Below, piece by piece: positions 5,322-37,860 of a stretch of DNA of 52,163 bases. Source of the DNA: an uncultured Thermoplasmata archaeon (lineage in GTDB: Archaea > Thermoplasmatota > Thermoplasmata > Halarchaeoplasmatales > Halarchaeoplasmataceae). The translations under genes and the position numbers were made by a program. The first letter of the stretch is position 1. Every line of letters begins with the position of its first letter. The notes below the pieces were generated by a model. The model searched no databases and was not told the DNA's origin. It was given only the letters and a program-made list of their open reading frames with translations. The stretch is from NCBI GenBank assembly GCA_964398905.1, contig CAYNOV010000001.1, positions 1 to 52,163 of the forward strand, written 5' to 3'.

Positions 5322-8300
5322 TCAATTTCTAGCATCTATTATTACATCAACGACACCATTGATCTGGTCCAATTGATTATCTTCAAGTATATTTGGATTG
5401 ATAGGTATGACTAAGATCGAATCGTTTATAGCTACTTGATCTTTGATAGATTGTACCAGGTGAAGGACCGTTCTAAAATCATTATTGGTGATCAAATATT
5501 CTACTCCATTGAACAGGATCACGCCTCTATCTCTTGCTAAAAAGTTCTCCAATGCAAGACTCAATTTTTCCAGGCTCTTAGGTCTGATAACATCGTCTCT
5601 ATCTACATTGGAAAGCCATATCATATCCACGTCCTCTAGGTCGTACTCTTCTTTTATCTTATCAGGATAATCTCTAGTCACACAAAGTCCTTTTTCACCA
5701 GTTTCTAATATCTGTTTGAATATTTCAAAAGATCTCTCTGAATCTTCCTCTTCTATAAGATGAGTAGAGCATTTAGAGACACCTTCCGGTAGACGAGTTT
5801 TTCTCTTTTCTGTTTCTTCGATCTTTTTTTCTGAACTTTGATCTTTTACCACGTCCATGTGTTTATCCCTATAATGTCGTTCGACCCAACCCACTGTCTG
5901 ATAGGTCTTTTCACAATCCTCATGGGGACACAAATATTCTCCATCTTCTTCTTCGATATCGATGTCTAATCCTTCTTTTTCTCCAGATATATCGGTCTCT
6001 GGTTTTTCAATTTCTTCAGCTTTTTCTTCAGATCCTTCTTCCGCTTCTTCATCTTCCTTCAACTTTTCCTCAACCTGATCCTCCTCTTTTTTCTCTTCAA
6101 ATGAATTCACGACTTTTTCAGCACATCCTTCACCAAGACCTTCTATCTCTAAGAGTTCTTCTCTGGTCGCTTCAAAGAGGGAATCAACGAATGTGTACCC
6201 AGCCTGGTAAACCTCTAAACCTTTTTCTTCATCTAATCCACAAATATCGGTGAGATATCCGATGACTTCGGTCTTGTAGAGAGGATCGATACCGATCTCG
6301 ACCTCTTCTCCGTTAACGTCCCATCCCAAAATATATTGGCTTTTTTCAACCCCTCCAGATTTTAGCCTGAACTTTCTAGCACCTACTTCATCTCTGATTT
6401 CTTTCATTGTAGGCTCTAGAGCATCTAAAACATTATCAGTCCCGGAAATGTAAACATCTATTTCATCCTCATCTGCGATGTCCAAGTCCATTCGCATACT
6501 TTTGATCCTTAGTTCGATCTCTCTTGCAGTTTCCTCATCCCATATCTCATCCGAAACTCTTAGATCAACGAAGATCTCTTGATCATCGAGGTCTATCTTC
6601 TCAAAACCATCAGGCATCTCTCTGATAAAGTTCACCATAGACGGATCGATCTCTACGATCTGACCTTCGAGTCCCATCTCGAAGCCGCCTTTTTCCATCC
6701 CCTCTTTTATGTTCTCTGGTGACTTCTTCTCCAACATGGTCGCTATTTTACTTACCCAGTGTTGGTAAGATTTTCTTATAACGTCCCTCTTAGGTTCAGC
6801 TCTCAATATAGCTTCATCCCATCCTTCATCTGGATATAAAATTTCTATCTCTTTGACTTTTGCCTTCAATCTTATTATCCTTTCGAATTTTTCGGCTAAT
6901 TCAACAGCATCTTGACTTTTGCCTTTATAAACTATCCTTTGAAGGGGCCATATCTCTGGAAGGTCGGATCGCTTTTTGGTAAGGATTATCGAATCTATGA
7001 CTTTGCTTACTTCCGCCATCTCTTCTTCTAGAACTTCGTTATGCCGCTCCTCTTTATTTTCGGGCCAATCCTCCAAGAAAATACTGTCTTTATTACGATA
7101 GAATTCTCTATAGATATTTTCGGCAAGCATAGGGAAAACGGGAGCTATCAATTTAGAAAGGTCATCTAACAATTCGTAAAAAATGCACAACAGATCGAGT
7201 TCTTGATCCATCCTAGCTTCATCCAACCTGTCTCTTACTGAGATCATATATGTCTGAGCAAAATCATCGAGGACAAAATTTTGGAGTGAATCGATCATCT
7301 CTTCAAATCTGTAATTTGAATATGCTTTGGTGAGTTCTTCTTTGGTACTCTCCAATCTTGAAAGGATCCATTCATCTTCATAGTCGATTTCATCACTAAA
7401 GGAGTTCTCTTCTAAATCTTCTAAATCTAATTCAGATCCAGCTATAGACCTTCTTAAGAACACTTGTATGTTTTTCAGAACTTTTACCAATGGATGTGGA
7501 TATTCGATATCTTCTCCTTTTACATATCTCTTAGTCCATAAGGGTTTTTCCGAAAAAAGGTTACCTCTGAGAGAATCATAACCGTGTCTTTTTACTAGAC
7601 TGCTTACATCTTTGTGATCTATGCTACTGACTACGGTTCCAAGAGGAAGTACTTTTTCCGAGCTGTTCTCACCAAAAAGTGATAAAGATAGGACAACACT
7701 TTCATCTAACTGAGATCCGACCCTAGAATCATCCTCCACAAGGACCTTAGCTGGCCACCAAGATTGATGACCTTTTTCCTCACAAGGATATCCTATCTGA
7801 GCCCAAGGAGAGCAAGCCCGGATGAAAGAAGGATCGATGGTCTTTTCTGTCCAAGTCATAATTTTACCACAATCCGGACATCCTAATTGTATGTCTGGTG
7901 TTTCAAGTATTGTTAAAGGAAAATCTATATCTTCGGTGGATAGCTCTTCGAGATCAGAATGTTGTGAAGGTGTGAATATCGTTCCACAATCACATTTCCA
8001 CATGGGAAATGGATGTCCCCAGATATTGTCTCTTGTCAAAGGCCACTCTCCAAAAAACACATCTTTATTTGAAGGTTTTATGTTTTCGAGTTCGTTGTCA
8101 TAGTCAATACTTGACGAATCAAAAAACCATTCTCTTTTTGGATAAGTTATCAATCTGTTTTTACATGTAGAGCATCTCTCAACATCTTTTTTTGTTTCTG
8201 ATCGAGAGAGAAGCAAGCCTTTAGATTCAAGATCATCCAATATAACAGATTCGCTCTCAGCTGCTGAGATACCAGAATATTTGTTCATCCTAGGACCATC

Positions 8301-9371
8301 ATCAAAATGCCCATTCATCATGAGAGGATCGTATCGTGATAGATCTTCTTTCTCGGCGATCTTCCAGTGAAGTTTATCATAATAAGGTGTAAGAGGAACG
8401 ATGCCAGTTCCATCTAATCTGATATCGTTGGAAAGTATAACCTTTCCTAGTTTTCCATATTCCTCGGTTTTTATAGGTATCTTATCCCCCAACGGATATC
8501 TGTAGGTAAGCCCTTCAAGGGCTTCCCCTGTAACAACCTTTTGGACCTCGTAATCTTGAACCTGAGCGATCTCGAGCATATCTTCAATCGTTGATTTAAG
8601 AACTACAAGCTGTTCTGGATCTTCTTCCGAACCGATCTTCACGATGGCATATTCTTCATCGGGATGAACAACGATGTTTAAACTAGCAGGATACTTCCAC
8701 ATATCTTCTAGATAAGTCAAAAAATATCTATTTTTGCCACTAGCTAAAGGTATCTTAACTAACGCTTCTTCTTTTACTTCTGATGTAGATGTTACCTCGA
8801 TATCAGATAGAGAAGTTTTACATTCAGGACAAAATTTTAAAGGCTTTCTACGTTGGATCAAAAGATCCTTTTCATATAAGTTATCTATAGTCCACCATAT
8901 CGGGTCTAAGAAGTCTTTAGAGCGTGTTTGATATTCAAATTCATCGATCATCCAGACCCCTAATTTTTTTAATTCGTCTCGAGTAGATTCGATGTATCGT
9001 TCTGATCTATCATCGATTTCACTGAGCAGCTCTTTCTTATCCTCATCGTCTATCGTTTTAAGACATTCGATATCATCCATGTCTTTAATAGAAAGTTTTT
9101 CAACTTTGTTGTTCATCGATTCAAAACCCACACCATTTCTAACGTTATATCCACTGATACTGTAGAAGCGGGCGAGAGTATCATAAACCATGTTGATGAA
9201 TATCTCGTTCCACTCTAGGTGATCTTTAGTATTAACTGGCGCCCTTGGCAAATATACGTTCCTGCCTCCCTTTCTAAATTCACTGACCTCATCATCTATA
9301 TCTCCGGATCTCCAAAATTTGATGGTATCTTCTTCTGACTTCTGAAGTTTCAAGCGATCATCAAGGTCCAT
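5322..9371 (-). CDS. Class-Ia aminoacyl-tRNA-synthetase-like protein (IleRS/ValRS-type scaffold, degenerate catalytic motifs) fused to HhH, acidic linker, C2H2 zinc finger and C-terminal DUF835
   Basis: 1349 aa. Synthetase landmarks are retained: CPECKTSLSDIEV, ERCSTCKNRLITYPKREWFFD, WPLTRDNIWGHPFPMWKCDCG, HGYDSLRGNLF, EWILSRLESTKEE. The HIGH position reads DHLEW (nt 9210..9224) and the KMSKS position reads KDVSS (nt 7599..7613). HhH is LLEIEGLGEGCAEKVVNSF (about 6099..6200). The zinc finger is YLCPHEDCEKTYQTVGWVERHYRDKH (about 5853..5942). DUF835 is GLCVTRDYPDKIKE...VILFNGVEYLITNNDF (about 5325..5774). Confidence 0.7.
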   Translation of the reverse strand: MDLDDRLKLQKSEEDTIKFWRSGDIDDEVSEFRKGGRNVYLPRAPVNTKDHLEWNEIFINMVYDTLARFYSISGYNVRNGVGFESMNNKVEKLSIKDMDDIECLKTIDDEDKKELLSEIDDRSERYIESTRDELKKLGVWMIDEFEYQTRSKDFLDPIWWTIDNLYEKDLLIQRRKPLKFCPECKTSLSDIEVTSTSEVKEEALVKIPLASGKNRYFLTYLEDMWKYPASLNIVVHPDEEYAIVKIGSEEDPEQLVVLKSTIEDMLEIAQVQDYEVQKVVTGEALEGLTYRYPLGDKIPIKTEEYGKLGKVILSNDIRLDGTGIVPLTPYYDKLHWKIAEKEDLSRYDPLMMNGHFDDGPRMNKYSGISAAESESVILDDLESKGLLLSRSETKKDVERCSTCKNRLITYPKREWFFDSSSIDYDNELENIKPSNKDVFFGEWPLTRDNIWGHPFPMWKCDCGTIFTPSQHSDLEELSTEDIDFPLTILETPDIQLGCPDCGKIMTWTEKTIDPSFIRACSPWAQIGYPCEEKGHQSWWPAKVLVEDDSRVGSQLDESVVLSLSLFGENSSEKVLPLGTVVSSIDHKDVSSLVKRHGYDSLRGNLFSEKPLWTKRYVKGEDIEYPHPLVKVLKNIQVFLRRSIAGSELDLEDLEENSFSDEIDYEDEWILSRLESTKEELTKAYSNYRFEEMIDSLQNFVLDDFAQTYMISVRDRLDEARMDQELDLLCIFYELLDDLSKLIAPVFPMLAENIYREFYRNKDSIFLEDWPENKEERHNEVLEEEMAEVSKVIDSIILTKKRSDLPEIWPLQRIVYKGKSQDAVELAEKFERIIRLKAKVKEIEILYPDEGWDEAILRAEPKRDVIRKSYQHWVSKIATMLEKKSPENIKEGMEKGGFEMGLEGQIVEIDPSMVNFIREMPDGFEKIDLDDQEIFVDLRVSDEIWDEETAREIELRIKSMRMDLDIADEDEIDVYISGTDNVLDALEPTMKEIRDEVGARKFRLKSGGVEKSQYILGWDVNGEEVEIGIDPLYKTEVIGYLTDICGLDEEKGLEVYQAGYTFVDSLFEATREELLEIEGLGEGCAEKVVNSFEEKKEEDQVEEKLKEDEEAEEGSEEKAEEIEKPETDISGEKEGLDIDIEEEDGEYLCPHEDCEKTYQTVGWVERHYRDKHMDVVKDQSSEKKIEETEKRKTRLPEGVSKCSTHLIEEEDSERSFEIFKQILETGEKGLCVTRDYPDKIKEEYDLEDVDMIWLSNVDRDDVIRPKSLEKLSLALENFLARDRGVILFNGVEYLITNNDFRTVLHLVQSIKDQVAINDSILVIPINPNILEDNQLDQINGVVDVIIDARN

Positions 9372-10973: not shown

Positions 10974-12065
10974 ATGGAATCATTAGTGGATGAAGCTCTT
11001 TCTAGCGAAGAAGAAGTTAAAAATGAAGGATATCAAGATACAGAAACTGATGAGGAATTAAAGGAGGTACTCGAGTCTCTAAAAACGAATATCCATATCG
11101 TGGGTCTTGGGGGTGCCGGATGTAACACCATAAATAGGATCTCGGAAGAAGGCATCCACGGGGCAGAATTGATCGCAGGCAATACTGATGCTCAAGATCT
11201 ACTCACTGTCAGAGCCAATAGAAAAGTCCTTATGGGGAGAAATCTCACCAAAGGACTCGGGGCTGGAGCAAAACCCCAGATCGGCGAGAAGGCAGCCAAA
11301 GAGTCGATAGAAAAATATAAAGAGATATTGAAAGATTCAGACATCGTCTTTTTAACCTGTGGACTCGGAGGTGGAACAGGAACAGGATCTGTTTCACCGG
11401 TAGCAAGGGTCGCGAAGGATGAAGGAGCATTGACAATAGCTATACTCACAAAGCCTTTTGAGGCTGAAGGTAAATCAAGGATGAAGAACGCTCAATGGGG
11501 TATCAAAAGGATACGCAACGTCGCTGACACCGTTATAGTCATCCCAAATGATAAACTATTGGAATTAGTTCCTAGATTACCGATCAATAAAGCTTTCAAA
11601 GTAGCTGATGAAGTACTCATGAGAGCGATCAAGGGGATGACTGAAATAATCACTAAACCCGGATTGGTCAATCTAGATTACAACGACCTCAGAACTATAA
11701 TGGAAAGTGCCGGTCAGGCGATGATAGGCATGGGCGAATCATCGGCCGGCGGCGACAAAAGAGCCGAAGAGGCCATCGATGAAGCTATCAACTCACCACT
11801 TTTGGATGTGAACATGTCGGGTGCTTCAGGTGTACTCATAAACGTTACCGGACCTGAGGACATGAGCGTCCATGAAGCTGAGATGGTGGCGGAAAGTGTT
11901 GAGAGAAAGGCAGGAAAAGGCGCCAATATCATATGGGGTGCTAGTGTTGACCCGACTCTAGAAGACACGATAAAAGTGATGATAGTCGCTACAGGCGTTG
12001 AATCTAAACAGATACTCGGTGCTGAGAAAACTACGGGAAAAGAAGGTATCGAAGAAGTAGCGTAA
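10974..12065 (+). CDS. ftsZ: Cell division GTPase FtsZ
   Basis: [14 protein letters not shown]; tubulin signature [14 protein letters not shown]; [10 protein letters not shown]. Confidence 0.95.
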
Positions 12066-15210: not shown

Positions 15211-15374
15211 GAAATGCTATATACACTTGATAGAAATAAAGTTTATCGTGAAAGAATGAAATAGAAGGTCAAGGTTTATAATAAAAAAGAGATATGTATA
15301 TTTAGAAGATCTGAAAATGGATGTACTGTATAGTTGGATGTTTAAATTTGATAATCTTTATAGGTGGTTGAAGT

Positions 15375-16973
15375 ATGATAGAAGATGAATTCAATTACGG
15401 GGATGCATACTTACTTAAGACTGAAGATCAAAGATATCCTATCGAAATTTTCAAAAACTTGATACAGTCAGAACCTGGAATGTATATCACCAGTGAAGAA
15501 CCAAGCGACTTGAGTTATAGACACGATCTTCACGGTATCAGCTTTGTCTGGCTTTCAGATCAGGATCATCGATCGGCTATAGGTCCGGATGAGATCAATT
15601 TACTGGGTCTGGCCATAAAAAGGTTCATCTCTCAGAAAGAAGGTGTAGTGTTGTTTGACGGGTTGGATTATCTCTTAAAACATAATCCAGCTCACACGGT
15701 GGTAAAATTCATCAATTCTATTGAGAGGCAGATCGACAAACATTCTTCTTTGCTCTTATTGGTTCTTGACAGATCCAGGTTACAAAAGAAAGATATAGAC
15801 ATCCTTACAGAAAATTTAAGTTTTAAGATAAAACATTTAGGACCTAAAGCTCAAAGAAGGAAAGGCAAGATAGACACGGAAGATAGGAGTTTGGTCCTTG
15901 AGGTCAGGGAGATGATGGATTTCCTAGAAGAGCAAGAAAAAAATCTGATGGAAGATAAAAGCCACAAAAACCTTATGGATACGTTAAAAGATGAAGGCTC
16001 AAATATAAAAAGTGTTAAAAACGCCATAGAAGAACTTAGAGAAGAAAATAGAGCTTTAAAAAACGAGTTAAAAAAGATGAAAATCCAGGATAGAGAGAAA
16101 ATAGATGAAAAGAGTTCTATGGAAAGTAAAATAGTAGAAGATGTCAGGACAACTATAGATGACGAAAAGAAAGGTATCCAAGAGCAAGTTGAGAAGATAG
16201 GGAAGAGTAAAAAGAAGAAAACCAATGAGAAATATGAAAAAGAAAGTGCAAGTGATTTTATGGGCACCCTTCTAGATTTGAAGGAAGAAGTCAACTCGCT
16301 GAGAAAAGAAGTCAAAGAGATAAAGAGTAGTGATCCTCAGGTCGATGATATCACTGAGAAAGAAGTAAAAAAAGATGATCTTGAAGAAAAAGTCTTAGAA
16401 GAAGGTAAGTTCAAGGAAGATCTTGCTATTTCAGATGAAAGAGGATTGATCCAAGAAGAAGGCCGGTTAAAAATAAAGGCCGATTCTGTAGTCGATGACG
16501 ATATACTTTCTGAAAACGACATCGAGATCGGGCGCAGGGCTAATATAAAAGGGTCGATCGAATCTCAAAATGATGTAAAACTTGAAGAAAACGCCATAGT
16601 CGAAGGAAATATAGTTTCCAAAACTGGTGAGGTCAGGATAGGAGAAAACTGTGAAATAAAGGGTGAAATAATAGGAAATCGTATTGTTATCTCTTCAGGT
16701 AGTGAGGTCAAAGAAATAAAGGCAGAAAAAGAGGTGATACTCGAAAAAAATACCAGTGCATTAGAAGTATATTGTCAAGGTGATATAAAGATCTCAAAGG
16801 ACGTCTATATCGACAGAGACATATATTACGGAGGAAAACTTATCGTTGAGGGTTCAGACACCTCTATAAAAGAAAAAGCAAAACGTATAGAAGGGATAAA
16901 AAGGTCTGAAAAAGACCGCGATAAACAAGAAAGCATCGTTGAAGAAAGATGGGCCTCCGAAAAAAATAATTGA
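15375..16973 (+). CDS. DUF835-domain / coiled-coil / bactofilin-like beta-helix protein
   Basis: An AGGTGG Shine-Dalgarno lies before the ATG. The N-terminus parallels the DUF835 tail of ORF 5322..9371: GMYITSEEPSDL...FVWLSDQD...VVLFDGLDYLLKHNPAHTVVKFINSIE. The middle is a K/E heptad-rich segment. The C-terminus (about 16497..16859) has repetitive short beta-strand units: IEIGRRANIKGSIESQNDVKLEENAIVEGNIVSKTGEVRIGENCEIKGEIIGNRIVISSGSEV. Confidence 0.6.
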   Translation: MIEDEFNYGDAYLLKTEDQRYPIEIFKNLIQSEPGMYITSEEPSDLSYRHDLHGISFVWLSDQDHRSAIGPDEINLLGLAIKRFISQKEGVVLFDGLDYLLKHNPAHTVVKFINSIERQIDKHSSLLLLVLDRSRLQKKDIDILTENLSFKIKHLGPKAQRRKGKIDTEDRSLVLEVREMMDFLEEQEKNLMEDKSHKNLMDTLKDEGSNIKSVKNAIEELREENRALKNELKKMKIQDREKIDEKSSMESKIVEDVRTTIDDEKKGIQEQVEKIGKSKKKKTNEKYEKESASDFMGTLLDLKEEVNSLRKEVKEIKSSDPQVDDITEKEVKKDDLEEKVLEEGKFKEDLAISDERGLIQEEGRLKIKADSVVDDDILSENDIEIGRRANIKGSIESQNDVKLEENAIVEGNIVSKTGEVRIGENCEIKGEIIGNRIVISSGSEVKEIKAEKEVILEKNTSALEVYCQGDIKISKDVYIDRDIYYGGKLIVEGSDTSIKEKAKRIEGIKRSEKDRDKQESIVEERWASEKNN

Positions 16974-17841: not shown

Positions 17842-18375
17842 CTATCTTTCCCACCGACCTCTATGGGTCAATTCATCGGCGTTCATCTTGTCAGGTTCTT
17901 CTGGAACGTTAGACGGATATCCTATCGGTATCATCGCCACAGGTCTAACACCTTCTGGTATATCCAATTGATCAACTACTTTTTCTTCATCGAAAGCGCC
18001 TATCCAAACAGCACCATAACCTTTATCCACTACGGCTAAAAGCATGTTTTCTACAGCGGCGGTCGCATCTTGAACCGAATAGAGTTCTCTACCTCTATCT
18101 CCGTATCTCTCGGCTGATCTTTCTTTGTTTGCACAAACAACAACGATCCATGATGCCTCCGCTATGAAAGACTGTCCATAGGCATTTTCGACCAATCTAT
18201 CCTTCTCTTCTTCGTCTTTTATGATAATGAAATCCCTAGCTTGTCGATTCCCTGCAGATGGTGCCATATGGCCTATCTCGATTATCTCCTCTATTTCATC
18301 TTCAGGGATCTCTTTATTTTCGAAAGATCTCACACTTCTCCTGCTCTCAACGACTTTCATGAAATCCATGATCAT
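17842..18375 (-). CDS. Nitroreductase-family flavoprotein
   Basis: VVESRRSVRSF and HMAPSAGNRQA motifs. I prefer the ATG at 18375 because it forms an ATGA overlap with the flavodoxin stop. The track start at 18417 would overlap the upstream gene by 46 nt. Confidence 0.8.
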   Translation of the reverse strand: MIMDFMKVVESRRSVRSFENKEIPEDEIEEIIEIGHMAPSAGNRQARDFIIIKDEEEKDRLVENAYGQSFIAEASWIVVVCANKERSAERYGDRGRELYSVQDATAAVENMLLAVVDKGYGAVWIGAFDEEKVVDQLDIPEGVRPVAMIPIGYPSNVPEEPDKMNADELTHRGRWER

Positions 18376-18863
18376 CCCTCCGTTCCTGCGATCTTTTCGG
18401 TGAACTCGGCCATCCATCTACCGTAATACTTACACTGTTTCAATTCATCTTCATCCGGTTCACCAACTACTACTGGCCCGTAATGGTCTCCTTTCGGCAT
18501 ACCTTTTACGATCATACCGTGGATCAGAAGTGCTTCTACAAGTGAAATTATTGTAGTTTCGTTTCCTCCAGCAGTATTAGCGCTTGAGGAAAATGCCCCG
18601 CCTATCATGCCATCAAGGTCCCCGTGATGTTTAATACTCTCGTCGAGGAACTTTTTCATTTCACCAGATGGCAATCCATAATATGTTGGGGAACCAAGAA
18701 TCAAGGAATCGTATTCAGGTAGCGCATCTATCTCTACTTCTTTAACCTTTTTCAGCTCAATGTCTATATCACTGCCGCTTTCTTTTGCTCCTTCACATAT
18801 TTCTTCCGCCATCTTTTCAGTAGTTCCAGTCTCTGAATAATAACATATAAGCATCTTTGTCAT
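18372..18863 (-). CDS. Flavodoxin-like protein (WrbA/multimeric flavodoxin type)
   Basis: MLICYYSETGTTEKMAEEI FMN-binding N-terminus. LILGSPTYYGLPSGEMKKFLD. Confidence 0.8.
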   Translation of the reverse strand: MTKMLICYYSETGTTEKMAEEICEGAKESGSDIDIELKKVKEVEIDALPEYDSLILGSPTYYGLPSGEMKKFLDESIKHHGDLDGMIGGAFSSSANTAGGNETTIISLVEALLIHGMIVKGMPKGDHYGPVVVGEPDEDELKQCKYYGRWMAEFTEKIAGTEG

Positions 18864-19038: not shown

Positions 19039-20838
19039 TTGTTGGATGAGGACCAAACCATAGAAGCATTAAAATCTATGAAAAAGAGTGACTTCCAGAA
19101 TATCTGCTCGGAACTACTTGAAAATATGGGATTCGAAATTTCATCATTAGAGAACAGAGATGGGTCCTTGCTGATCGAAGGCGAGATCGAAAGAGGTGGG
19201 AGATCTCGAGAATATCTGATAAAATGTTGCAGAGATGAGGATGATCTAAAAGAAGAAGTGACTCAACTCCACGATATTTTAAGCGGAGATAAACACGGTC
19301 TGTATTTGACGACTAGTCTGAGAGATAAACCTATAGAAAAAACGGATCGCATAGAATTTGTTGGAGGTACACCCTTTTATAAATTATTAAAAAAGCTAAA
19401 TATGATATCAGCGATCGAAGATATCAAGAGTTCCAAAACTGACAAAGCGGACGTGATAGATGATGAAACAAATTTACAGGATGAAACTTCAAAGATCAAA
19501 AGTCTAGGGGAAAAAGGAAAAAAAGCCTATAAAGAGCAGGAATATCTCAAAGCTGTATCTTTTTTCGAAGAAGTCGTCGATATCGATCCTGAGGAAGAAG
19601 CCGCATGGAACAATAAGGCTCTTTGCCATCTAAAAATAGGCGATCACGAAAAGGCTATGGATTCTATAAAAAAGGCGATCTCAATCGATCCTGATTTTGA
19701 AGAGGCTTATCTTAACAAAGCCTTGATACACGAAAAAACAGGAGAGATAGAGGAGGCAAAAAGGTCAGCTGAAAAATTGATAGATTTAGATCCTAAAAAT
19801 CCAGAATATCACTACATCAAAGCTGCTTATCAGAAGAAGCTCGGTGAACTCGAAGAGGCTAAAATCTCTGTCCAAGAGGTTTTGGAGATAGATCCCGATT
19901 TCGAAAAAGCCAAAAAGATGCACGAAGAACTGGTCGAAGAAACAAAGGTGAGCGATTTTGGTGAAGCGAAAAAAGAACTTGAGAAAAGGATAGAAAGTCT
20001 TGAAGAAAAGAATCAGGAACTAGAAGAGAAAATAAAAGAGAAAGGATCTAAAATCGAGGAGTTGGAGAAACAGATCGATAGAGAAAAGGAGATAGCTGAA
20101 GCCAAGATAAAAGAGAAGGCAGACGAGATAAAGAAACTACAAAATCAAATACAAAAAGAAAAAGAATTGAAAAATGAAAAAGTCCAAGAGAAAGAAGAGA
20201 AAATAAAAGAACTGAAAAGCGAAATGGAAAATATCGAAAGTGTGACTAGTGATGATCTAGAAGAAAAAGAATCCAGGATAGAAGAATTAGAAGATCAACT
20301 TCAAGAAGAAAAAGAAATGAAAAATCAAGAGATTGAAAAAAAAGAGAAAAGGATAGAAGAATTGGAAAATCAACTTCAAGATAAGGGAGATGCAACTTCA
20401 GAGAAGATAAAAGAAAAAGAAGAAAAGATCGAAGAATTAGATGAGAAAGTAGAAGAGCTGGAATCTGAGATCTCAAATTTAGAAAAGAAGAAAAAGCAGA
20501 GCGAAAATAAATTCAAGATGGAAAAAAATAGGCTCCGAAACACAATAAAATTAAAACAAGAACGGATAAGTCATCTTCAAGAAGAAAATGAAGAGTTGAA
20601 AGAAAAACTCCAGAGATCTGAAAACGAAGAACCTTCTACTCAGAAAAAGAAAAAAGAAGCCGTTGAAGAATTTCAAAAACTGAAGAATGTCGGACCCGAA
20701 CTGGCAAACAGGATCTATGAATGTGGTTTTGAAGATATAGAAGAACTTAAACAAGCTTCTAAAAAAGAACTAAGTGAGATAAAAGGGATGGGAACTGCAT
20801 TGTCTGAAAAGATATATGAAAATCTACATGAGGATTAA
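19039..20838 (+). CDS. Multidomain protein: Mrr-like (PD-(D/E)xK-type) N-terminus, about 4 TPRs, long coiled coil, C-terminal (HhH)2
   Basis: TTG start 6 nt after an AAGGTGG Shine-Dalgarno. N-terminus: FQNICSELLENMGFEI...DGSLLIEGEIE...YLIKCC. TPRs: AWNNKALCHLKIGDHEKAMDSIKKAISIDPDFEEAYLNKALIHEKTGEIEEA. Then about 245 aa of E/K heptads with repeated IEELE.QLQ. C-terminus: FQKLKNVGPELANRIYECGF...LSEIKGMGTALSEKIYENL. Confidence 0.55.
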   Translation: MLDEDQTIEALKSMKKSDFQNICSELLENMGFEISSLENRDGSLLIEGEIERGGRSREYLIKCCRDEDDLKEEVTQLHDILSGDKHGLYLTTSLRDKPIEKTDRIEFVGGTPFYKLLKKLNMISAIEDIKSSKTDKADVIDDETNLQDETSKIKSLGEKGKKAYKEQEYLKAVSFFEEVVDIDPEEEAAWNNKALCHLKIGDHEKAMDSIKKAISIDPDFEEAYLNKALIHEKTGEIEEAKRSAEKLIDLDPKNPEYHYIKAAYQKKLGELEEAKISVQEVLEIDPDFEKAKKMHEELVEETKVSDFGEAKKELEKRIESLEEKNQELEEKIKEKGSKIEELEKQIDREKEIAEAKIKEKADEIKKLQNQIQKEKELKNEKVQEKEEKIKELKSEMENIESVTSDDLEEKESRIEELEDQLQEEKEMKNQEIEKKEKRIEELENQLQDKGDATSEKIKEKEEKIEELDEKVEELESEISNLEKKKKQSENKFKMEKNRLRNTIKLKQERISHLQEENEELKEKLQRSENEEPSTQKKKKEAVEEFQKLKNVGPELANRIYECGFEDIEELKQASKKELSEIKGMGTALSEKIYENLHED

Positions 20839-20857: not shown

Positions 20858-21229
20858 TTATTTTCCTATCACATTTTCTACTTCTTCTAAAACACCTTCC
20901 TTGTCAAAAGGTTTGATGATATAACCTTCTGCGCCCTTTTTCATAGCCTCAGTGACCTTTTCATTCTGTCCAACTGATGTGACCATTATCACTTTTTGAT
21001 CTGGGTTTTTTTCCTTTATTTTAGAGAGAGCTTCCAAACCATCCATCTCCGGCATTATGACATCCATAGTGACTAGATCTGGCTTTTGATCTTCGACCAT
21101 CTCAACTCCTTCTTTACCGTTTTTTGCCTCTCCTACAACTTCATACTGATCTGAAAGCATATCTCTTAACATCTTTCGCATGAATTGAGTATCATCGACA
21201 ACCAATACACTTTTAGGCATGGCAGACAC
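20858..21229 (-). CDS. cheY: Chemotaxis response regulator CheY
   Basis: 123-aa single receiver domain: VLVVDDTQFMRKML, phospho-acceptor context DLVTMDVIMPEMDG, YIIKPF. Confidence 0.9.
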   Translation of the reverse strand: MSAMPKSVLVVDDTQFMRKMLRDMLSDQYEVVGEAKNGKEGVEMVEDQKPDLVTMDVIMPEMDGLEALSKIKEKNPDQKVIMVTSVGQNEKVTEAMKKGAEGYIIKPFDKEGVLEEVENVIGK

Positions 21230-21327
21230 ACATTCTATAGGACATATTTATTATTTCTTATGTTTTTTGATTAAGAGATCCATCGATTCACTCAAAAAGT
21301 CTATCCCTTTTTTCAATACGTGGGAAA

Positions 21328-21339
21328 CTAATATATAAA
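21328..21339 (+). promoter_or_regulatory. Candidate archaeal TATA box for the cheC-cheD-mcp-cheW-cheW-cheR transcription unit
   Basis: TAATATATAAAC lies about 26-37 nt upstream of the cheC ATG (21365). Such strings are common in AT-rich DNA, so support is weak. Confidence 0.25.
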
Positions 21340-21364
21340 CGGAACAAATTGATTACTCTATATT

Positions 21365-21988
21365 ATGGAAAACAAGCACGACAAACAAACAAAAATAGAA
21401 TTAAATGAGGATAATCTCTTTCTGTTGAGGGAGATCCTAGAAACAGCAGCTAGAAAAGCAGCAGAATCCATCTCTAAGATGTTGGGGACTCCAGTAGAGA
21501 CCGAAATATTGAACATCTATACTAATCCCTTAGAACTTGTTGAGAAAGAATTCGATCAAGAAAATTTGGGGATCATACTTTACTCTGAGCTTAAGGAAGG
21601 TGAAGGAGGGATAACCCTCTTCGTGATGGACGAAGATAGCGCTATAACTCTAGCTCAAAACCTTCTCGGTAAGAAAGACCAGGCTGAAGGCGAACTCGGT
21701 GAACAGGAGAGGAGCGCTCTTAGAGAAGTAGGAAATATACTACTCGGCAATTTTCTAGCAGAAGTAGGAGACTATTTCGATATCCCTATTCTACATACTC
21801 CTCCAGAATTAAAACATGATATGATAGGTGTTTACCTGGAGAATCTATTGACTTATTCCGAAAGTCTAGAGAACAGCGCCATAATTTCGGAAGTCAAGTT
21901 GAAGGCCAAAGGAGTCGGCGTAAAGGGGAGATACATACTCCTGCCCAGTGATGAACTCACAGAAGATTTTATCGATAATCTATTTTGA
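21365..21988 (+). CDS. cheC: CheC-family CheY-P phosphatase
   Basis: The second-half motif fits S-x3-E-x2-N-x22-P exactly: SALREVGNILLGNFLAEVGDYFDIPILHTPP. The first-half site is degenerate: LLREILETAARKAAESISKML. Confidence 0.8.
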   Translation: MENKHDKQTKIELNEDNLFLLREILETAARKAAESISKMLGTPVETEILNIYTNPLELVEKEFDQENLGIILYSELKEGEGGITLFVMDEDSAITLAQNLLGKKDQAEGELGEQERSALREVGNILLGNFLAEVGDYFDIPILHTPPELKHDMIGVYLENLLTYSESLENSAIISEVKLKAKGVGVKGRYILLPSDELTEDFIDNLF

Positions 21989-22058
21989 AGATGAAAAAAG
22001 ATCTGTATCTAAAAGATGGAGAAGGACCCATGATTATCACGATCAAGAGGTAATCCGC

Positions 22059-22514
22059 ATGACTGAAGAGATAGAACTCAGGATCGGAGAAATGGAAATA
22101 ACGAACTCTAAAGGAATCTTGACTGCTAGAGCTCTAGGCTCTTGCGTAGCTGTGGCCATCTATGATAGACAGAATGAAGTGGGCGGTATGGCACATGTTC
22201 TTCTAGGAAATGGTAAAAGAAAAAAAGAAGGAAGATCTTGTATGTATGCGGATGAGGCAGTTGAAAATTTGATCAAGGGTATAATCAGTAAAGGAGGACG
22301 TAGAAGGAATTTGAAAGCTAAGATTGCAGGGGGAGCAAGTATGTTCTCAAGTACTTCTGCGGGTAAGATCGGCAAAAAAAATGTGAAAACTGTCAGAAGA
22401 GAATTAGAGGATAGAAATATCCCTATCGAAGGAGAAGATATCGGGGGAACTCACGCTAGAAATGTCAGATTCAAGGTCGGTTCGATGTCTATGAAAGTGG
22501 AAGTCAAGATTTGA
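22059..22514 (+). CDS. cheD: Chemoreceptor glutamine deamidase CheD
   Basis: ALGSCVAVAIYD (catalytic Cys), GGMAHVLL, AKIAGGASMF, GGTHARNVRF. I chose the ATG at 22059, which is preceded by AAGAGG. The track start at 21948 would overlap cheC by 41 nt. Confidence 0.85.
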   Translation: MTEEIELRIGEMEITNSKGILTARALGSCVAVAIYDRQNEVGGMAHVLLGNGKRKKEGRSCMYADEAVENLIKGIISKGGRRRNLKAKIAGGASMFSSTSAGKIGKKNVKTVRRELEDRNIPIEGEDIGGTHARNVRFKVGSMSMKVEVKI

Positions 22515-22602
22515 ATTTTTCGCCTTTAAAATATTCAGAATGAAAAATTTTCAAAATGTTTAAATAATTCAAATATCTACTAAATATAAGGTTGTTTTAA
22601 TC

Positions 22603-24750
22603 ATGCAATTAAGATTACCCACATTATTAGGGACCATCATAGTGATGTTCGTTTTTATAGGGATCTGGTATATTTTCTTCAGAAAGAGCTTGGTTTTCAA
22701 ATTCGTTTTTCTTTTATTCGCTATCTCTGGAATGTATTATTACATAGGAAACGTCGTAGCGCCTATGGATCAGACCAGTAGACTGCTTATAATGATTCCG
22801 CTGAATGCATTTGTCGCTATTTCCCTGACTTATTACATCAAGAGATACATTGTTGGACCATTAAATGAGTTAAAAGAGAATTCAAAAAAAGTTGCAAAGG
22901 GCGATTTCAGTCAAGAGATAAATGTAGTTTCTAGTAGAGATGAAGTAGGTGAACTTTCCTCTGCCTTTGCTAAGATGAAAGATGACTTCTCTAACAGTAT
23001 TTTAAGGATACAAAAAACATTGAAGTCGCTTTCAAAAGGCAATCTCAACGAAAGAATAGATGTAGAGGATCTAGAGGGCGATTACAAAACGATGGCCATA
23101 ACCATCAATGAGAGTATAGAAGGTGTAGATAGGTCACTGAAGGAGATCAAAAGAGTGATGAATGATTTAGAAAAAGGTGATCTGCAAACCAGGATATCCG
23201 AAGAAGGGCTTGAAGGCGAGTACAAAAAGATGGGAAGATCTGTCAATCAAAGTATCGATGCTGTGGAAAATTCTATGGAAAAGATCAACGAAACGATGAA
23301 AGAAGTAGCTGAAGGAAAACTAGTTACTCGGATAAAAACAGAGGAGCTCGAGGGTGATTACAGAGAGATGGCTGAATCGGTTAACGAGAACATCGGAAAA
23401 GTGAAAGGGGTCATGAAAAATATAAAAGGTGTGATGAATTCCCTCGCATCTGGTGAACTGGACATAGAACTAGATTCTAGTGAAATGCAGGGAGATTATA
23501 AAGTGATGGCCTTATCTGTAAATCAGAGTATAAATACCATGAGCGATTCTTTAGATCAAATAAATAAAGTGATGAGAAACCTTGCTGAGGGAAAATTAGA
23601 TGTTGGGATCGAAACCGAAGAACTTTCTGGAGATTTTGAAGAGATGAGCGTATCGGTCAATGAAGCATTGACTATAATAAAAAATTCTATACAGCAGATC
23701 AAGGAAGTTATGGAGGCACTAGCGAACGGTGATCTGAATAAACAGATAGATGTGGAAGATTTAAACGGAGAGTATCTAGTGATCGGAGAGGCGGTGAATC
23801 AAAGCATCAAAAACACAAGGGAAAATATAAGCAGGTTGAAAGATGTTACCCGAGAGCTTGACGGATCATCAGAAACGTTAGCAGCTTCTGCTGAGGAGTT
23901 GAGAACTACGGCAGAAAACGTGGCTGAGTCCGTTCAAAACATATCTCAAGGCACATCTGAACAATTCAGGATGGCAGAAGATCTAGCAAGTACTGTCGAA
24001 GACTCCGCAGCTAATATGGAAGAAACATCAGCTTCTGCCGAGGATATAGCCGCTTCCGCGGAGGAAGTAGCCGCTCAAACAGACGAAGGTCAGAAGTTCG
24101 CTGAAGAGGCGTCTAATCAGGTCACGGAACTCAAAGAAATATTAGATAGAACCGCAGAAAAAGTTCAGCATCTAGATGAACAATCCAATCAGATAGGAGA
24201 AGTCATAGATACGATTTCAAATATAGCCGAACAAACTAACCTTCTTGCGCTCAATGCCTCTATCGAAGCAGCTAGAGCAGGAAAGCACGGTGAGGGCTTT
24301 GCTGTAGTTGCGGATTCAGTGAGGGAGCTAGCTGAAGAGACCCAAGTTGAGACGGAAAATATCAAGGAGATCATAGAAAGTACGCAGGAGAATGCGAAGG
24401 AAGTGGTCGAAAGTGTGAAGGCTGTTAGTGAAAAGGCCGAAAATGTAGATGGTGTCACCAAAGAGAATTTGAATGCTCTCGATCAGATAAGGGAGGCGAC
24501 AGATTCAGTTTCTAAATCCATACAGGAGATCTCTAGAGCTGTTGACGAGGTATCTGGAAAACTACAAGATTCAGCCACTAAAGTGAAATCAGTCACTGAG
24601 ATAGCCGATGAGACATCTGATCAAGCAGAATCTGTAGCCGCTGCAGCTGAAGAACAAAATGCTTCCGTTGAAGAACTGTCCACGAACGCTCAACAGCTTT
24701 CTACTTTAGCCGACAACTTATCAAGGTTGATAGATAAGTATGATCTCTGA
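22603..24750 (+). CDS. Methyl-accepting chemotaxis protein (transducer) with N-terminal TM bundle, HAMP plus six tandem HAMP-like units, and MCP signalling domain
   Basis: Three hydrophobic segments in aa 8-79 and no sizeable extracellular domain. HAMP: [21 protein letters not shown]...[13 protein letters not shown]. Highly conserved MCP tip: [38 protein letters not shown]. Confidence 0.9.
23020..23847 (+). repeat. Six in-frame tandem 138-nt (46-aa) HAMP-like repeat units inside the MCP gene
   Basis: Units start at aa 140, 186, 232, 278, 324 and 370, a strict 46-aa period. Consensus: M..L..G.L..RI..EELEGDY..MA.SVN.SI......L..I..V. Confidence 0.8.
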
Positions 24751-24844
24751 TCATCTTAAGCCAAAAGGTAAAAGTTTATTAAACCACTGATCGTTTCAGA
24801 GAAATGATGTCACTCGATGTTGAAAGTAGCTTTGAGGTGCTAAT

Positions 24845-25348
24845 ATGGGTATAAAGGAAGATATAGATTCTGATGAATCGATACAGATGGTTGTTTTCAG
24901 GGTAGGTGATGATTATCTTTCCTGCCCTATATCACAAGTTAGAGAGATAATACAACTCGAAGAAGTCACATCCGTACCTTCTACCCCTGATAAGATAAGA
25001 GGCATCATAAACAGGAGAGGAGAGATCATAACCGTCGTCGATCTTCCGAAGATATTAGGTCTTGATATCGAACTAGATGAAGAAGATTCTCAACTCATGA
25101 TCTTGTTTGACGAGCATATCGGTGTGATGGCTTCAGAAGTCACAGAGATACCCACTATTTCAACTGATGAGATAGAACCACCTTCAAAGGCACTAGAGAC
25201 ACCTGTCAATAAAAAATATCTCGAAGGTATAGTAAAACACGAAACTGAACTCATACTGTTGACGGATCTGATATCTATGGTGAAGAATCTCTCAGGCGAA
25301 GGTCTAAAGATGGCTGAAGAATTCAGGGATAAAGAACCTAAAGAATAA
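24845..25348 (+). CDS. cheW: Chemotaxis coupling protein CheW
   Basis: GAGGTG Shine-Dalgarno. MVVFRVGDDYLSCPISQVREII, IRGIINRRGEIITVVDLPKILG. Confidence 0.9.
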   Translation: MGIKEDIDSDESIQMVVFRVGDDYLSCPISQVREIIQLEEVTSVPSTPDKIRGIINRRGEIITVVDLPKILGLDIELDEEDSQLMILFDEHIGVMASEVTEIPTISTDEIEPPSKALETPVNKKYLEGIVKHETELILLTDLISMVKNLSGEGLKMAEEFRDKEPKE

Positions 25349-25406
25349 ATCGACTTTGATCACTCGACGATCAGTTTAATTTTATGCTCTCGTGAGGTGT
25401 TAGATA

Positions 25407-25934
25407 GTGGTTAACGATCTGCATGATAAAGATGATGGACCTAAAAAAGACAGAAATGAAGAGAATAAGAAGCCTCAAAACAAAAAAATGTTCACTGTTT
25501 TTGAGTTGGATAATGAAGAATATGCTATAGAGATAGATATGATGAATGAGATCATCAAAGATGTCAATATATCTAATGTACCTGGATCCTCAAAAAATGT
25601 ATTAGGAGCAACGAACTTGAGAGGCGAGATAATCCCTGTTATCGATCTAAAAAAGATATTAGGTTTAGAGAAAACGGGTGAGGAGGTCCAAAACACGATC
25701 ATCATACATATAGATGAAAAAAAATGGGCCGCGCCCGTAGACAAAATAAAAGATATAGTCTCTCCAAATACGGATCAACTTGTCGACCCCTCTAAAATAA
25801 CCAACCTAGACGGTAGAAGGCTTAGATGGATCATAAGACTTGAAAAAGGTCGTAGTGTTCGAGTGATAAATGCACAAAAGCTCCTGGAAGAGGAGGTCAA
25901 AGACGTAGATATAGAGAGCGAACAGAAAGAATAG
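25407..25934 (+). CDS. cheW: Second CheW-domain protein (K/E-rich N-terminal extension)
   Basis: GTG start 8 nt after GAGGTG. FTVFELDNEEYAIEIDMMNEII, VLGATNLRGEIIPVIDLKKILG. Confidence 0.8.
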   Translation: MVNDLHDKDDGPKKDRNEENKKPQNKKMFTVFELDNEEYAIEIDMMNEIIKDVNISNVPGSSKNVLGATNLRGEIIPVIDLKKILGLEKTGEEVQNTIIIHIDEKKWAAPVDKIKDIVSPNTDQLVDPSKITNLDGRRLRWIIRLEKGRSVRVINAQKLLEEEVKDVDIESEQKE

Positions 25935-25942
25935 GTGGATAT

Positions 25943-26767
25943 ATGGAAGGACTAGAAAACGATACTGATTCCCAGGGGTTTAAGAGGTTAAGAAAAGAGG
26001 TCTCAAGGAGAATAGGGGTAGATTATACGAATTACTCTAAATCACATCTGAGGAGAAGATTTCATGCAAGGATGAGAGTCGTAGAGAAAAGCAAATTCAA
26101 AGACTATCTAAATTACCTGAAACATAATGAAGACGAGATAGCTGAATTGAGAGATCTCCTCACGGTTAACGTTACTAAATTCAAGAGAGACAAAGATGTA
26201 TGGAAACTTATAGAGGATGAAGTCATACCACAGATGATCAAAAAAAAGGAGGAAGACATCTTAAAAAATATCAAAGTATGGTCTGCTGGATGTGCAACCG
26301 GGGAAGAACCTTATTCTCTAGCTATAAGTTACCTAAATAATAACCCTTCTGAGGATCTAAAATTTAAGGTGACGGCCACCGATCTCGACGGCGAAGCACT
26401 GGACTTCGCCAAAAAAGGCACCTACCCAGAAAAATCCGTGAAAAATTTATCTAAAAACGAAAAAAGAAAGTATTTTGACCTAAAAAATGAAAATTGGGTA
26501 TTAGACGATAAGGTCAAAGATCTCGTTGATTTCAAAGAGCTAGATATCTTTGAAACCTCCTTTACAAAAAAATTCGACTTGATCCTATGCAGAAATCTTA
26601 TGATCTATTTTAGCAACGAATCAAAAACTGAGCTGATGATGAGATTAGCAGAAAGTTTGAATAGAGGAGGTTTTTTGATATTGGGCATGGCTGAAAATTT
26701 AAGAGCACCGGCTAGGGATCATTTAGAAACTTACGATCTTAGAAAAAGGATATTTTTCAAGAAGTAG
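25943..26767 (+). CDS. cheR: Chemotaxis protein methyltransferase CheR
   Basis: SAM-binding VWSAGCATGEEPYSLAI and DLILCRNLMIYF. Confidence 0.9.
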   Translation: MEGLENDTDSQGFKRLRKEVSRRIGVDYTNYSKSHLRRRFHARMRVVEKSKFKDYLNYLKHNEDEIAELRDLLTVNVTKFKRDKDVWKLIEDEVIPQMIKKKEEDILKNIKVWSAGCATGEEPYSLAISYLNNNPSEDLKFKVTATDLDGEALDFAKKGTYPEKSVKNLSKNEKRKYFDLKNENWVLDDKVKDLVDFKELDIFETSFTKKFDLILCRNLMIYFSNESKTELMMRLAESLNRGGFLILGMAENLRAPARDHLETYDLRKRIFFKK

Positions 26768-30245: not shown

Positions 30246-30881
30246 TCAGGCTTCTTTATTGATATGGGTTTCAGGCAATTTTAAGAACAAGATGTAGAGG
30301 ATGGTCAAGATTGACAGGATGAGACCGATAGAAACACCCAGTAATAGCGTGTTATCCATCTCTATCCAAAAATCAAATCGAGCTGTCCAGGATACAAAGA
30401 AAGCTATAGTAGCCAATATAAATGCAAGAGCAAACCTCTCCATAGCTTTCCTTCTCCACTGCCCGTTATATTCTCTCATCATATCTTTTGTTTCGCCTTC
30501 CCATATCTTTCTTATTTGGTCTTTTTTCATCATCTCTTGGAGGTAAACTATCGAAGCGTAGAGGAATATCAGCATCCCTACAAATAAAAACACACTAGAT
30601 GAATGAAATCCAATATCCAAATTGGTGAAATAAAATGCGGCCCCCGAAGATATAACGCCTGAACTGACTATGATCCTACTTTTGAAAAAAAATCCAAATG
30701 TTGCGATGCCACCACCTATTATAGAGAGGTGCCATATGATATGTGGATAAGACGCAGCGGCGGTTATCGCTATAATCAGTATTATGGTCAAGAGCGCTTT
30801 GAACGTCGATATGTTTCTATGGGCCTCTACCATGAGCAGATCCGATATGGTTTTCGATCTTTTATCGAGTTCATCATTCAA
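30246..30881 (-). CDS. Polytopic membrane protein of unknown function (last gene of the DUF4129/DUF58 operon)
   Basis: 211 aa with about 5-6 hydrophobic helices. Its start overlaps the DUF58 stop by 4 nt. Confidence 0.6.
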   Translation of the reverse strand: MNDELDKRSKTISDLLMVEAHRNISTFKALLTIILIIAITAAASYPHIIWHLSIIGGGIATFGFFFKSRIIVSSGVISSGAAFYFTNLDIGFHSSSVFLFVGMLIFLYASIVYLQEMMKKDQIRKIWEGETKDMMREYNGQWRRKAMERFALAFILATIAFFVSWTARFDFWIEMDNTLLLGVSIGLILSILTILYILFLKLPETHINKEA

Positions 30882-37857: not shown

Positions 37858-37860
37858 GAT

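Follow-up and report, generated by a model that had tools for sequence, protein, structure and literature searches.

What might a protein do that carries a DUF835 domain at one end and a probable bactofilin-type beta-solenoid at the other? This question is raised by an open reading frame (ORF) at positions 15375-16973 on the plus strand of contig CAYNOV010000001.1, a 52,163-nucleotide stretch from an uncultured Thermoplasmata archaeon that we analyzed in full and refer to as the window. The ORF starts with ATG and encodes 532 residues. Its coordinates had been given exactly in a preliminary description made from the nucleotide sequence, and the build proposed there, a DUF835 domain joined through a coiled coil to a bactofilin-like beta-helix, is real. 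We found that the N-terminal domain has a KaiC-like predicted fold and has lost the P-loop, that helices and a disordered linker separate it from the C-terminal solenoid, and that deeper relatives are encoded in archaellum operons. We infer that the protein may act as a cytoplasmic scaffold, a platform or anchor subunit for the polar motility/chemosensory machinery, a reading whose chances we judge to be about even. The bit scores, E-values, pLDDT values (from the predicted local distance difference test) and similar figures given below come from predictions and sequence comparisons. The gene is laid out as follows.

15375-16973, plus strand: whole gene, short form, consisting of DUF835, helical stalk, linker, beta-solenoid and tail (ORF; full-length conservation in 16 members)
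15375-15839, plus strand: DUF835 or inactivated KaiC-like (iKaiC) alpha/beta domain, aa 1-155, P-loop absent (Pfam, AlphaFold2 (AF2), Foldseek)
15867-16328, plus strand: four amphipathic helices, K/E-rich, forming a predicted stalk of coiled-coil type, aa 165-318 (AF2; hydrophobic periodicity)
16035-16070, plus strand: LREENRALKNEL, aa 221-232, the best-conserved block of the stalk (L221 and E224 invariant; block near-invariant in short forms)
16329-16445, plus strand: acidic disordered linker of variable length, aa 319-357 (pLDDT 35-38; 38% D+E; large indels between homologs)
16446-16889, plus strand: three-sided beta-solenoid, probably of the bactofilin type, with ~7.5 windings of 17-19 residues, aa 358-505 (Pfam, AF2, hhalign)
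16890-16970, plus strand: disordered charged C-terminal tail, aa 506-532 (pLDDT ~40-45 in both models)
16929-16958, plus strand: ESIVEERWAS, aa 519-528, conserved terminal motif and candidate docking peptide (alignment of 16 members)

A rare architecture conserved from end to end

An exhaustive profile search of 1.84 × 10⁹ representative proteins gave 2781 matches, nearly all of which were DUF835-only. The full architecture was found in 10 clusters among these representatives and in two more in GTDB genomes. Sixteen members can be aligned over their whole length; they are 22-48% identical to the protein of the window and have 21 invariant residues; because the whole architecture is kept at this distance, the gene is neither a chance ORF nor a mis-fusion. 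At least ten of the sequences are short forms (35-48% identity), which fall into two well-supported subclades. The syntenic relatives are labelled as metagenome-assembled genomes of Thermoplasmatota/Thermoplasmata. The window itself is archaeal by its gene content (aIF5A, FtsZ, agmatinase, PriL and chemotaxis genes of archaeal style). It has a G+C content of ~39% and encodes a strongly acidic proteome (isoelectric points (pI) of 4-5.5; 21% D+E), from which the source organism is probably a salt-in halophile. The architecture is a rare one and belongs to uncultured Thermoplasmatota that are probably halophilic.

In a neighbor-joining tree of the solenoid domain, the short forms and the longer relatives from archaellum operons described below (the long forms) were united with 100% bootstrap support against a sister family that ends in a helix-hairpin-helix (HhH) domain. 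The long forms diverge more from one another than the short forms do (1.44 versus 0.93). The branch order of short and long forms received bootstrap values of 46-55%, and the ancestral form can therefore not be assigned. Members of the sister family (P0061, P0095, P0103, P0111, P0121 and P0164) consist of a coiled coil, the same solenoid, a helical region and the C-terminal HhH; DUF835 and the Trp-containing tail are absent from them. They may be filament proteins that tether DNA or protein. One of their genes (L009, 8001-8564) lies near ThrRS and ribosomal protein genes.

Family counts are affected by several database artefacts: the long form P0019 is interrupted by Ns in the assembly (L016, ~7400-7560), P0055 is an apparent chimera of a methyltransferase-like N-terminus and a long-form C-terminus, and P0021 and P0023 are cut by contig ends. 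The one name that a source gives to a family member, P0020, is 'DUF835 domain-containing protein'.

The C-terminal domain is probably a bactofilin-type solenoid

The AF2 model of the C-terminal domain, calculated from an alignment of 15 sequences, is a confidently predicted beta-solenoid (pLDDT 93-98, typically ~97) with three short strands per winding and successive winding lengths of 18, 18, 19, 17, 18, 17 and 18 residues. The repeat sequence from which a beta-helix had been proposed is found within it, at aa ~391-447, and the structure prediction suggested at that time as a check has returned a beta-solenoid.

At the level of sequence, the Pfam Bactofilin model (PF04519) recognizes the protein in a narrow pass (E=6.6e-7; 29.9 bits against a cutoff of 27.9). 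All 15 C-terminal domains of the family match the same model at E<0.01, the best at 6.8e-11. When complete proteins were scanned, about two-thirds of the relatives reached the cutoff, with scores of 20-49.5 bits; the highest score belongs to P0022 and covers model positions 2-97 of 98. A search of 5.8 × 10⁹ sequences with the C-terminal profile yielded three matches, all three PF04519 proteins; this search is word-indexed and returned very few matches, and the exhaustive search of representatives is the more informative one. A canonical bactofilin, P0165 (86 bits to PF04519), was among the profile matches (E=3.6e-6). Aligned with P0165 by hhalign, the family profile gave a probability of 96.3% and E=1.8e-9 over 108 contiguous columns that span the whole bactofilin domain.

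The preliminary description had itself named a hexapeptide helix as the finding that would speak against a bactofilin, and this alternative does appear. In this case the C-terminus would be a left-handed beta-helix (LbH) used for trimerization or for interaction and not for catalysis, like those of eIF2B-epsilon or dynactin p25/p27, and would form no filament. LbH domains such as those of GlmU and eIF2B-epsilon are built from 18-residue triangular turns with a local hexad pattern like that of our protein, in which a period-6 pattern of the type h-x-h-x-x-x runs over ~3 windings. LbH_EIF2B was matched by eight of the 15 family domains, and GlmU was the best match by sequence in the PDB. In a control alignment with the LbH domain of Escherichia coli GlmU, hhalign returned 95.2% and E=2.7e-8; the connecting residues of this GlmU query were filled in by hand and agree with the segments seen in the PDB alignments. 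Since the hhalign scores for bactofilin and GlmU are nearly equal, we did not use the probability itself as evidence.

The two alignments differ in their course. The one with GlmU spans ~3 windings and then jumps over 29 residues; it breaks because the variable winding lengths violate the hexad register. No Pfam LbH or Hexapep model reached its cutoff on these domains (LbH_EIF2B scored at best 28.5 against 54, Hexapep_GlmU 18 against 23.3). In Foldseek comparisons, ~34 LbH structures superposed on the solenoid model with TMq values of 0.13-0.21 and a root-mean-square deviation (rmsd) of 11-14 Å, whereas right-handed helices (tapirin, SufBD, PL3 lyases and the bactofilin structures 6rib/6ria) reached TMq values of 0.22-0.37, 6rib with a TMt of 0.44. 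Had the model been an LbH with the same number of residues per turn, a good superposition on LbH structures would have been expected. Our protein contains no transferase or nucleotidyltransferase partner domain, and disordered segments (319-357 and 506-532) flank the solenoid as in bactofilins.

A number of results weigh against the bactofilin assignment. Sequence searches of the PDB matched the left-handed helices of GlmU (E=2e-4 with the protein itself, 4e-7 with the profile and 2e-3 with P0022), as did the hhalign control. Bactofilin structures gave no useful E-value with any of these three queries: 6ria was found only at E=0.26 with the protein as query, none was found with the profile (E<=1) or with P0022, and 2N3D likewise gave no useful E-value. 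The isolated solenoid model had no significant Foldseek match in the PDB or BFVD, so that only relative TM-scores are usable. Finally, the short hydrophobic/basic N-terminal tail by which many bactofilins are targeted to the membrane is missing, and DUF835 and the stalk stand in its place; this feature is not universal in bactofilins.

Bactofilin is nevertheless favored by the contiguity of the alignment, the winding lengths, the Pfam tally of 15 out of 15, the Foldseek superpositions, the restriction of the profile matches to PF04519 proteins and the lack of a transferase domain. We conclude, from a preponderance of evidence rather than from a clean test, that the C-terminal domain is with good probability of the bactofilin type, and we regard an LbH interaction domain as quite improbable. 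With canonical bactofilins (PF04519/DUF583; BacA of C. crescentus, TtBac of T. thermophilus, 6RIA) it shares the three-sided solenoid, windings of ~17-19 residues, corners of the type h-x-G-x-h and flanking disordered tails. It differs from them in having ~7.5 windings instead of six, in its C-terminal position within a multidomain protein of 532 residues, and in its weak structural match to 6RIA/6RIB (TMt 0.34-0.44). Most tests, though not all, place it in the bactofilin superfamily as a divergent member.

That archaeal bactofilins are only beginning to be studied, as had been stated, is borne out by the two Haloferax proteins characterized to date. The halofilins HalA and HalB of Haloferax volcanii affect cell shape and the placement of the division plane (PMC11459167). 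Like our protein, they are archaeal and have divergent bactofilin domains, detectable by profiles only, in non-canonical architectures; HalA consists of two bactofilin domains joined head to head, HalB is a membrane protein whose bactofilin domain is extracellular, and both have roles in shape transitions (PMC11459167). Unlike the present family, they have no DUF835, no coiled-coil stalk and no archaellum-operon context. The family would therefore be a third archaeal bactofilin architecture, one in which the polymer domain is tied to a pseudo-ATPase of the KaiC class. The open-access literature searched contains no description of a DUF835-bactofilin fusion, in agreement with the earlier claim of novelty, and DUF835 itself is mentioned in only one paper of it. 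No second bactofilin was found within the window.

The N-terminal domain is an inactivated KaiC-like module

The DUF835 model of Pfam (PF05763) matches aa 20-146 with 64 bits, well above its cutoff of 33.1. In the full-length AF2 model, aa 1-155 adopt a Rossmann-type beta-alpha-beta fold (pLDDT 92-96). Foldseek matched this domain to KaiC CI/CII, to ArlH/FlaH (4yds; TMt 0.45) and to RecA, all with a probability of 1.00 and with superpositions of ~150 columns at an rmsd of 3-4.6 Å. KaiC and ArlH carry the sequence GxxGxGK[ST] between beta1 and alpha1, where DUF835 has a loop of three residues. A Walker A motif ([AG]x4GK[ST]) was found at this junction in none of the 16 family members, and the Walker-B-like Asp varies among them. 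With the P-loop lost, the domain is unable to act as an ATPase. The three-residue loop and the missing Walker A motif fit the literature, in which DUF835 is termed 'iKaiC' and classed as a KaiC-like output domain that has become inactivated and is found in archaeal response regulators (PMC5847659). The domain of our protein belongs to the same Pfam family as the outputs of these REC-DUF835 proteins and shares their KaiC-like fold and inactivated nucleotide site (PMC5847659); it differs in being N-terminal and in having a structural polymer domain as its fusion partner in place of REC/PAS sensor modules.

We considered whether DUF835 might be a recognizable paralog of ArlH and rejected this. 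Compared with ArlH of the related operons, the DUF835 profile showed no sequence similarity (hhalign 0.3%), and the likeness is therefore one of fold only. The best match of the N-terminal profile among PDB sequences was FlaH, at E=0.33.

A paralog of the domain is encoded in the same window, as had been noticed from the sequence. The N-terminal ~150 residues are paralogous to the tail of a 1349-residue synthetase-like protein (30% identity over 133 residues; BLASTP E=2e-25).

5337-5768, minus strand: DUF835 at the C-terminus of a pseudo-IleRS-like protein, a possible hetero-oligomerization partner (Pfam 103 bits; hidden Markov model of the family N-terminus 144 bits)

The whole protein (5322-9371, minus strand) is a class-I synthetase-like protein of the IleRS type with tRNA-synt_1, Anticodon_1 and DUF5915 matches, a C-terminal HhH and the DUF835 tail. 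Neither a HIGH nor a KMSKS motif is present in it; it is therefore probably a pseudo-synthetase, and the name given to it earlier is fair. The representative-protein search revealed at least ten clusters of proteins of 1289-1436 residues with a C-terminal DUF835 that resemble orthologs of it, and it is a conserved neighbor at loci L012 and L013. An HhH_5 domain occurs both in this pseudo-synthetase and in the sister family of bactofilin-HhH proteins, as well as in the protein of 599 residues described below.

These observations allow for another role of the protein, as the scaffold of an archaeal KaiC-type signaling network apart from motility, in which DUF835 would gather DUF835- or KaiC-like proteins on a filament. 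RecA and KaiC folds usually oligomerize, DUF835 often forms the C-terminal output domain in archaeal response regulators and occurs in many large proteins, and the paralogous pseudo-IleRS-HhH-DUF835 protein is a conserved neighbor 6 kb away. No operon links the two genes, and such a network would leave unexplained why the full-length relatives stand in archaellum operons and carry an ArlC domain. We consider a KaiC-type network distinctly unlikely as the protein's actual role; it would be compatible with a role in motility and does not exclude it.

Stalk, linker and tail

Between DUF835 and the solenoid, a coiled coil of ~220 residues had been described. The K/E-rich amphipathic helix is there, but the region really consists of ~145 residues of segmented helices followed by a disordered linker of ~40 residues. 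AF2 placed the helices at 173-206, 208-246, 250-279 and 291-317. The stalk is 49% charged (26% D+E, 23% K+R), contains almost no Gly or Pro and has a hydrophobic period of 3.4-3.6 residues. In sister proteins of the HhH type, a helix of the sequence EENxxLxxEL, similar to the LREENRALKNEL block, lies ahead of the beta-helix. At a helix rise of 0.148 nm per residue, the stalk helices would span ~21 nm if they formed a single rod, and the linker could lengthen this by as much as ~14 nm.

The terminal motif comes after an acidic linker and has the consensus E-[IV]-V-x-E-[RKQ]-W-[AV]-S, with V522 and W526 kept in >=90% of the 16 members. It is common to short and long forms and is absent from the HhH-type sisters. 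Within its disordered surroundings, the motif looks like a tethered docking peptide. A tail that folds back onto DUF835 was also considered and is unsupported (pLDDT ~42 in the full-length AF2 monomer).

Long-form relatives are encoded in archaellum operons

All six deeper relatives (P0018-P0023) sit in archaellum operons, between archaellins and ArlF/G/H/I/J. P0018, P0020 and P0022 carry an N-terminal FlaC_arch domain (ArlC, PF05377; 39-45 bits), the FlaC domain of P0019 lies upstream across an assembly gap, and P0021 and P0023 are cut at the N-terminus by contig ends; every intact N-terminus among the six has FlaC/ArlC. The operons encode archaellin(s), the long form, an ArlF-like protein of ~400 residues, an ArlG-like protein of 145 residues, ArlH with an intact Walker A motif, ArlI, ArlJ and a second T2SSE ATPase. 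In these operons the long form is the sole gene in the arlC/D/E slot of the euryarchaeal layout, and there is no separate arlC, arlD or arlE. The size of the ArlF-like protein is unusual, and the second T2SSE-type ATPase follows after ArlJ (L006 10304-17610; L016 9325-16636; L018; L019). At L006, L007 and L016 the end of the operon adjoins a ThiI/THUMP gene, which is also the neighbor of the gene in the window. None of the assemblies examined contains both a short and a long form.

ArlC/D/E, which form the switch/stator complex, dock on the KaiC-like ArlH and obtain CheY-P by way of CheF; they may also touch the polar cap, a sheet of unknown composition that lies 35-44 nm below the motor (PMC8978795, PMC7534055, PMC10117864). 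The long forms share the FlaC_arch domain and the operon position with this complex, whereas iKaiC and bactofilin domains are both absent from known ArlC/D/E proteins. Members of the Thermoplasmatales proper (Oxyplasma) possess arlC and arlD genes of the ordinary kind and lack a polar cap; the family of long and short forms is therefore a lineage-specific solution. The open-access literature searched revealed no link between bactofilins and the archaellum beyond incidental co-occurrence.

A proposed scaffold for the motility and chemosensory machinery

How might the parts work together? The solenoid, both end faces of which are free, would most likely stack end to end and so form a filament or sheet that is independent of nucleotides. 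The flexible acidic linker and the helical stalk of ~145 residues would hold DUF835 out from this polymer. DUF835, which would not turn over ATP, could serve as a docking or oligomerization module for a partner of the KaiC/RecA type, and the conserved acidic Trp peptide at the C-terminus could provide a second docking site. In the long forms, where the ArlH-ArlI motor is the obvious partner, the protein would link this motor with a polymeric platform in the cytoplasm. The short form, devoid of FlaC and retained beside ThiI and the chemotaxis (che) cluster, would be a platform or anchor subunit.

The role of the short form in motility is suggested by its homology to the long forms, the shared position beside ThiI, the shared terminal motif and the conserved che neighborhood. 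Several findings count against it. The link is drawn by homology and synteny only and is the weakest step of the argument. Pfam detected no FlaC or ArlD/E domain in the protein, and tblastn with the FlaC part of P0022 gave no match in the window. Neither archaellins nor ArlF/G/H/I/J were found by tblastn in the 52 kb or at any short-form locus. Lacking a FlaC domain and standing outside an arl operon, the protein is therefore not itself an ArlC/D/E protein. Nor was CheF (DUF439) detected in the 52-kb window; chemotactic archaea are reported always to have CheF, and its absence from the window is odd. Against the scaffold reading as a whole, the missing profile similarity between DUF835 and ArlH, which speaks neither for nor against binding, and the lack of any sign of docking by the tail in the AF2 monomer are also to be weighed.

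The absence of archaellum genes from the window could also mean that the short form is a functionless remnant of a lost archaellum operon. It occupies the same place beside ThiI as the long forms, yet archaellins, arlF-J and the FlaC domain are missing. This is contradicted by the intact reading frame, by the domains and 21 invariant residues kept in at least ten short forms, by the retained terminal motif and by the che cluster retained nearby, which is complete or nearly so. A remnant therefore seems extremely improbable to us.

If the scaffold reading of the family holds, the closest functional parallels are analogies. ArlX, which forms the scaffold ring of the crenarchaeal motor, has no homology to our protein and is likewise a cytoplasmic scaffold that positions or stabilizes a motility machine or a complex with an ATPase. 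BacE/BacF of B. subtilis, involved in flagellar motility, and BacNOP of M. xanthus are bactofilin scaffolds that may work in a like manner; these bacterial systems employ free-standing bactofilins and adaptor proteins, in place of the single fused polypeptide seen here. The protein would thus work like a bactofilin scaffold with a built-in adaptor.

A bolder extension is that proteins of this family make up a cytoplasmic platform, similar to the polar cap, to which archaellum motors and perhaps also chemosensory arrays are anchored in these Thermoplasmatota; we attach a low probability to it. The bactofilin domains would form the sheet or filament, the stalk and linker (~20-35 nm) would bridge the distance to the motor, and ArlH/ArlI would be gripped by the pseudo-KaiC, together with the ArlC domain in the long forms, with the short form as a stand-alone subunit. 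If this were true, the family would be the first molecular candidate for a structure of which the components have been unknown since the 1980s-90s. Recent reviews name the cytoplasmic bracing of euryarchaeal-type motors and the make-up of the polar cap as open questions. A single polypeptide in which ArlC, an ArlH-like fold and a polymerization domain are combined with a spacer would be a concrete and testable candidate for such a brace. The family joins a probable polymerizing domain to the archaellum operon, and it places DUF835 (iKaiC), which is widespread in archaea and has no known function, in a defined structural setting where partners can be sought.

Genomic neighborhood: ftsZ and the che cluster

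The surroundings of the gene include the following elements.

10974-12065, plus strand: ftsZ, 3.3 kb upstream of the gene, a separate transcription unit (gene annotation)
15211-15374, plus strand: upstream region, an AT-rich spacer of 164 bp between the gene and the divergent M3 peptidase gene (judged from the nucleotide sequence)
20858-29766, strand not assigned to the cluster as a whole: chemotaxis cluster of CheY, CheC-like, CheD, methyl-accepting chemotaxis protein (MCP), two CheW, CheR, CheA and CheB (conserved downstream of the short form)

The spacer before the gene contains TATA-like boxes, and a GGTGG motif resembling a Shine-Dalgarno sequence lies 7-11 nt 5' of the ATG. The stop codon is 12 bp from that of the convergent ThiI/THUMP gene. 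Judged from these flanks, the gene is a monocistronic unit. An Rfam scan of the window revealed no RNA features.

Short-form loci have a constant gene order of pseudo-IleRS-DUF835, Pyr_redox, FtsZ, agmatinase, aIF5A, M3 peptidase, the short form and ThiI, continued by nitroreductase, flavodoxin, a protein of 526-599 residues, CheY, CheC-like, CheD, MCP and further genes. The closeness of ftsZ had been taken as a hint of a cytoskeletal connection. The distance of 3.3 kb is real; a functional link is unsupported, given the monocistronic gene and the three minus-strand genes (agmatinase, aIF5A and M3 peptidase) that lie between the two. The conserved block also holds aIF5A, agmatinase and the peptidase and therefore reads as lineage synteny: the proximity of ftsZ is part of a long conserved synteny of the lineage and not an operon. 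Relatives of the protein in other lineages are not near ftsZ.

This bears on the possibility that the protein is a halofilin-like cytoskeletal element of cell shape or division that works with FtsZ; its bactofilin polymer would then shape or position the envelope or division plane, DUF835 would be an appendage for regulation, and motility would not be involved. The neighboring ftsZ, the gene order kept across the short-form clade and the effects of the archaeal bactofilins HalA/HalB on shape and division-plane placement speak for it. Against it stand the nature of the block, with three housekeeping genes of opposite strand before ftsZ, the occurrence of the long forms in arl operons, with no ftsZ in the long-form loci read, and the lack of a membrane-targeting sequence in the protein. 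We regard a partnership with FtsZ as rather unlikely.

The che cluster, complete or nearly so, begins 3.9 kb from the gene and has the same arrangement at L012, where the short form is 41% identical to ours. CheY, CheA and CheB are encoded on the minus strand, and the MCP has HAMP repeats. Between flavodoxin and CheY, the window encodes a protein of 599 residues (19039-20838, plus strand) with a weakly Mrr_cat-like N-terminus, TPR repeats and a C-terminal HhH_5; in L012 this slot is filled by a 526-residue protein that has no Pfam match. The ORFs of nitroreductase (17842-18417) and flavodoxin (18372-18863; minus strand) overlap by 46 bp, and the start of the nitroreductase probably lies later.

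Other genes of the window

Right after cheB follows a set (30246-33643, minus strand) with DUF58 and DUF4129 proteins and two unannotatable ORFs of ~200 residues, which resembles a MoxR/vWA-associated module. A bacterial-type NAD-dependent LigA with a BRCT domain adjoins a PolX/PHP polymerase (35815-39561, minus strand), likely as a pair of repair genes. PriL is also encoded in the window. At 39659-43885 (plus strand) lies the gene of an S8 subtilase of 1408 residues with CARDB domains and a pI of 4.05, probably a secreted or surface protease.

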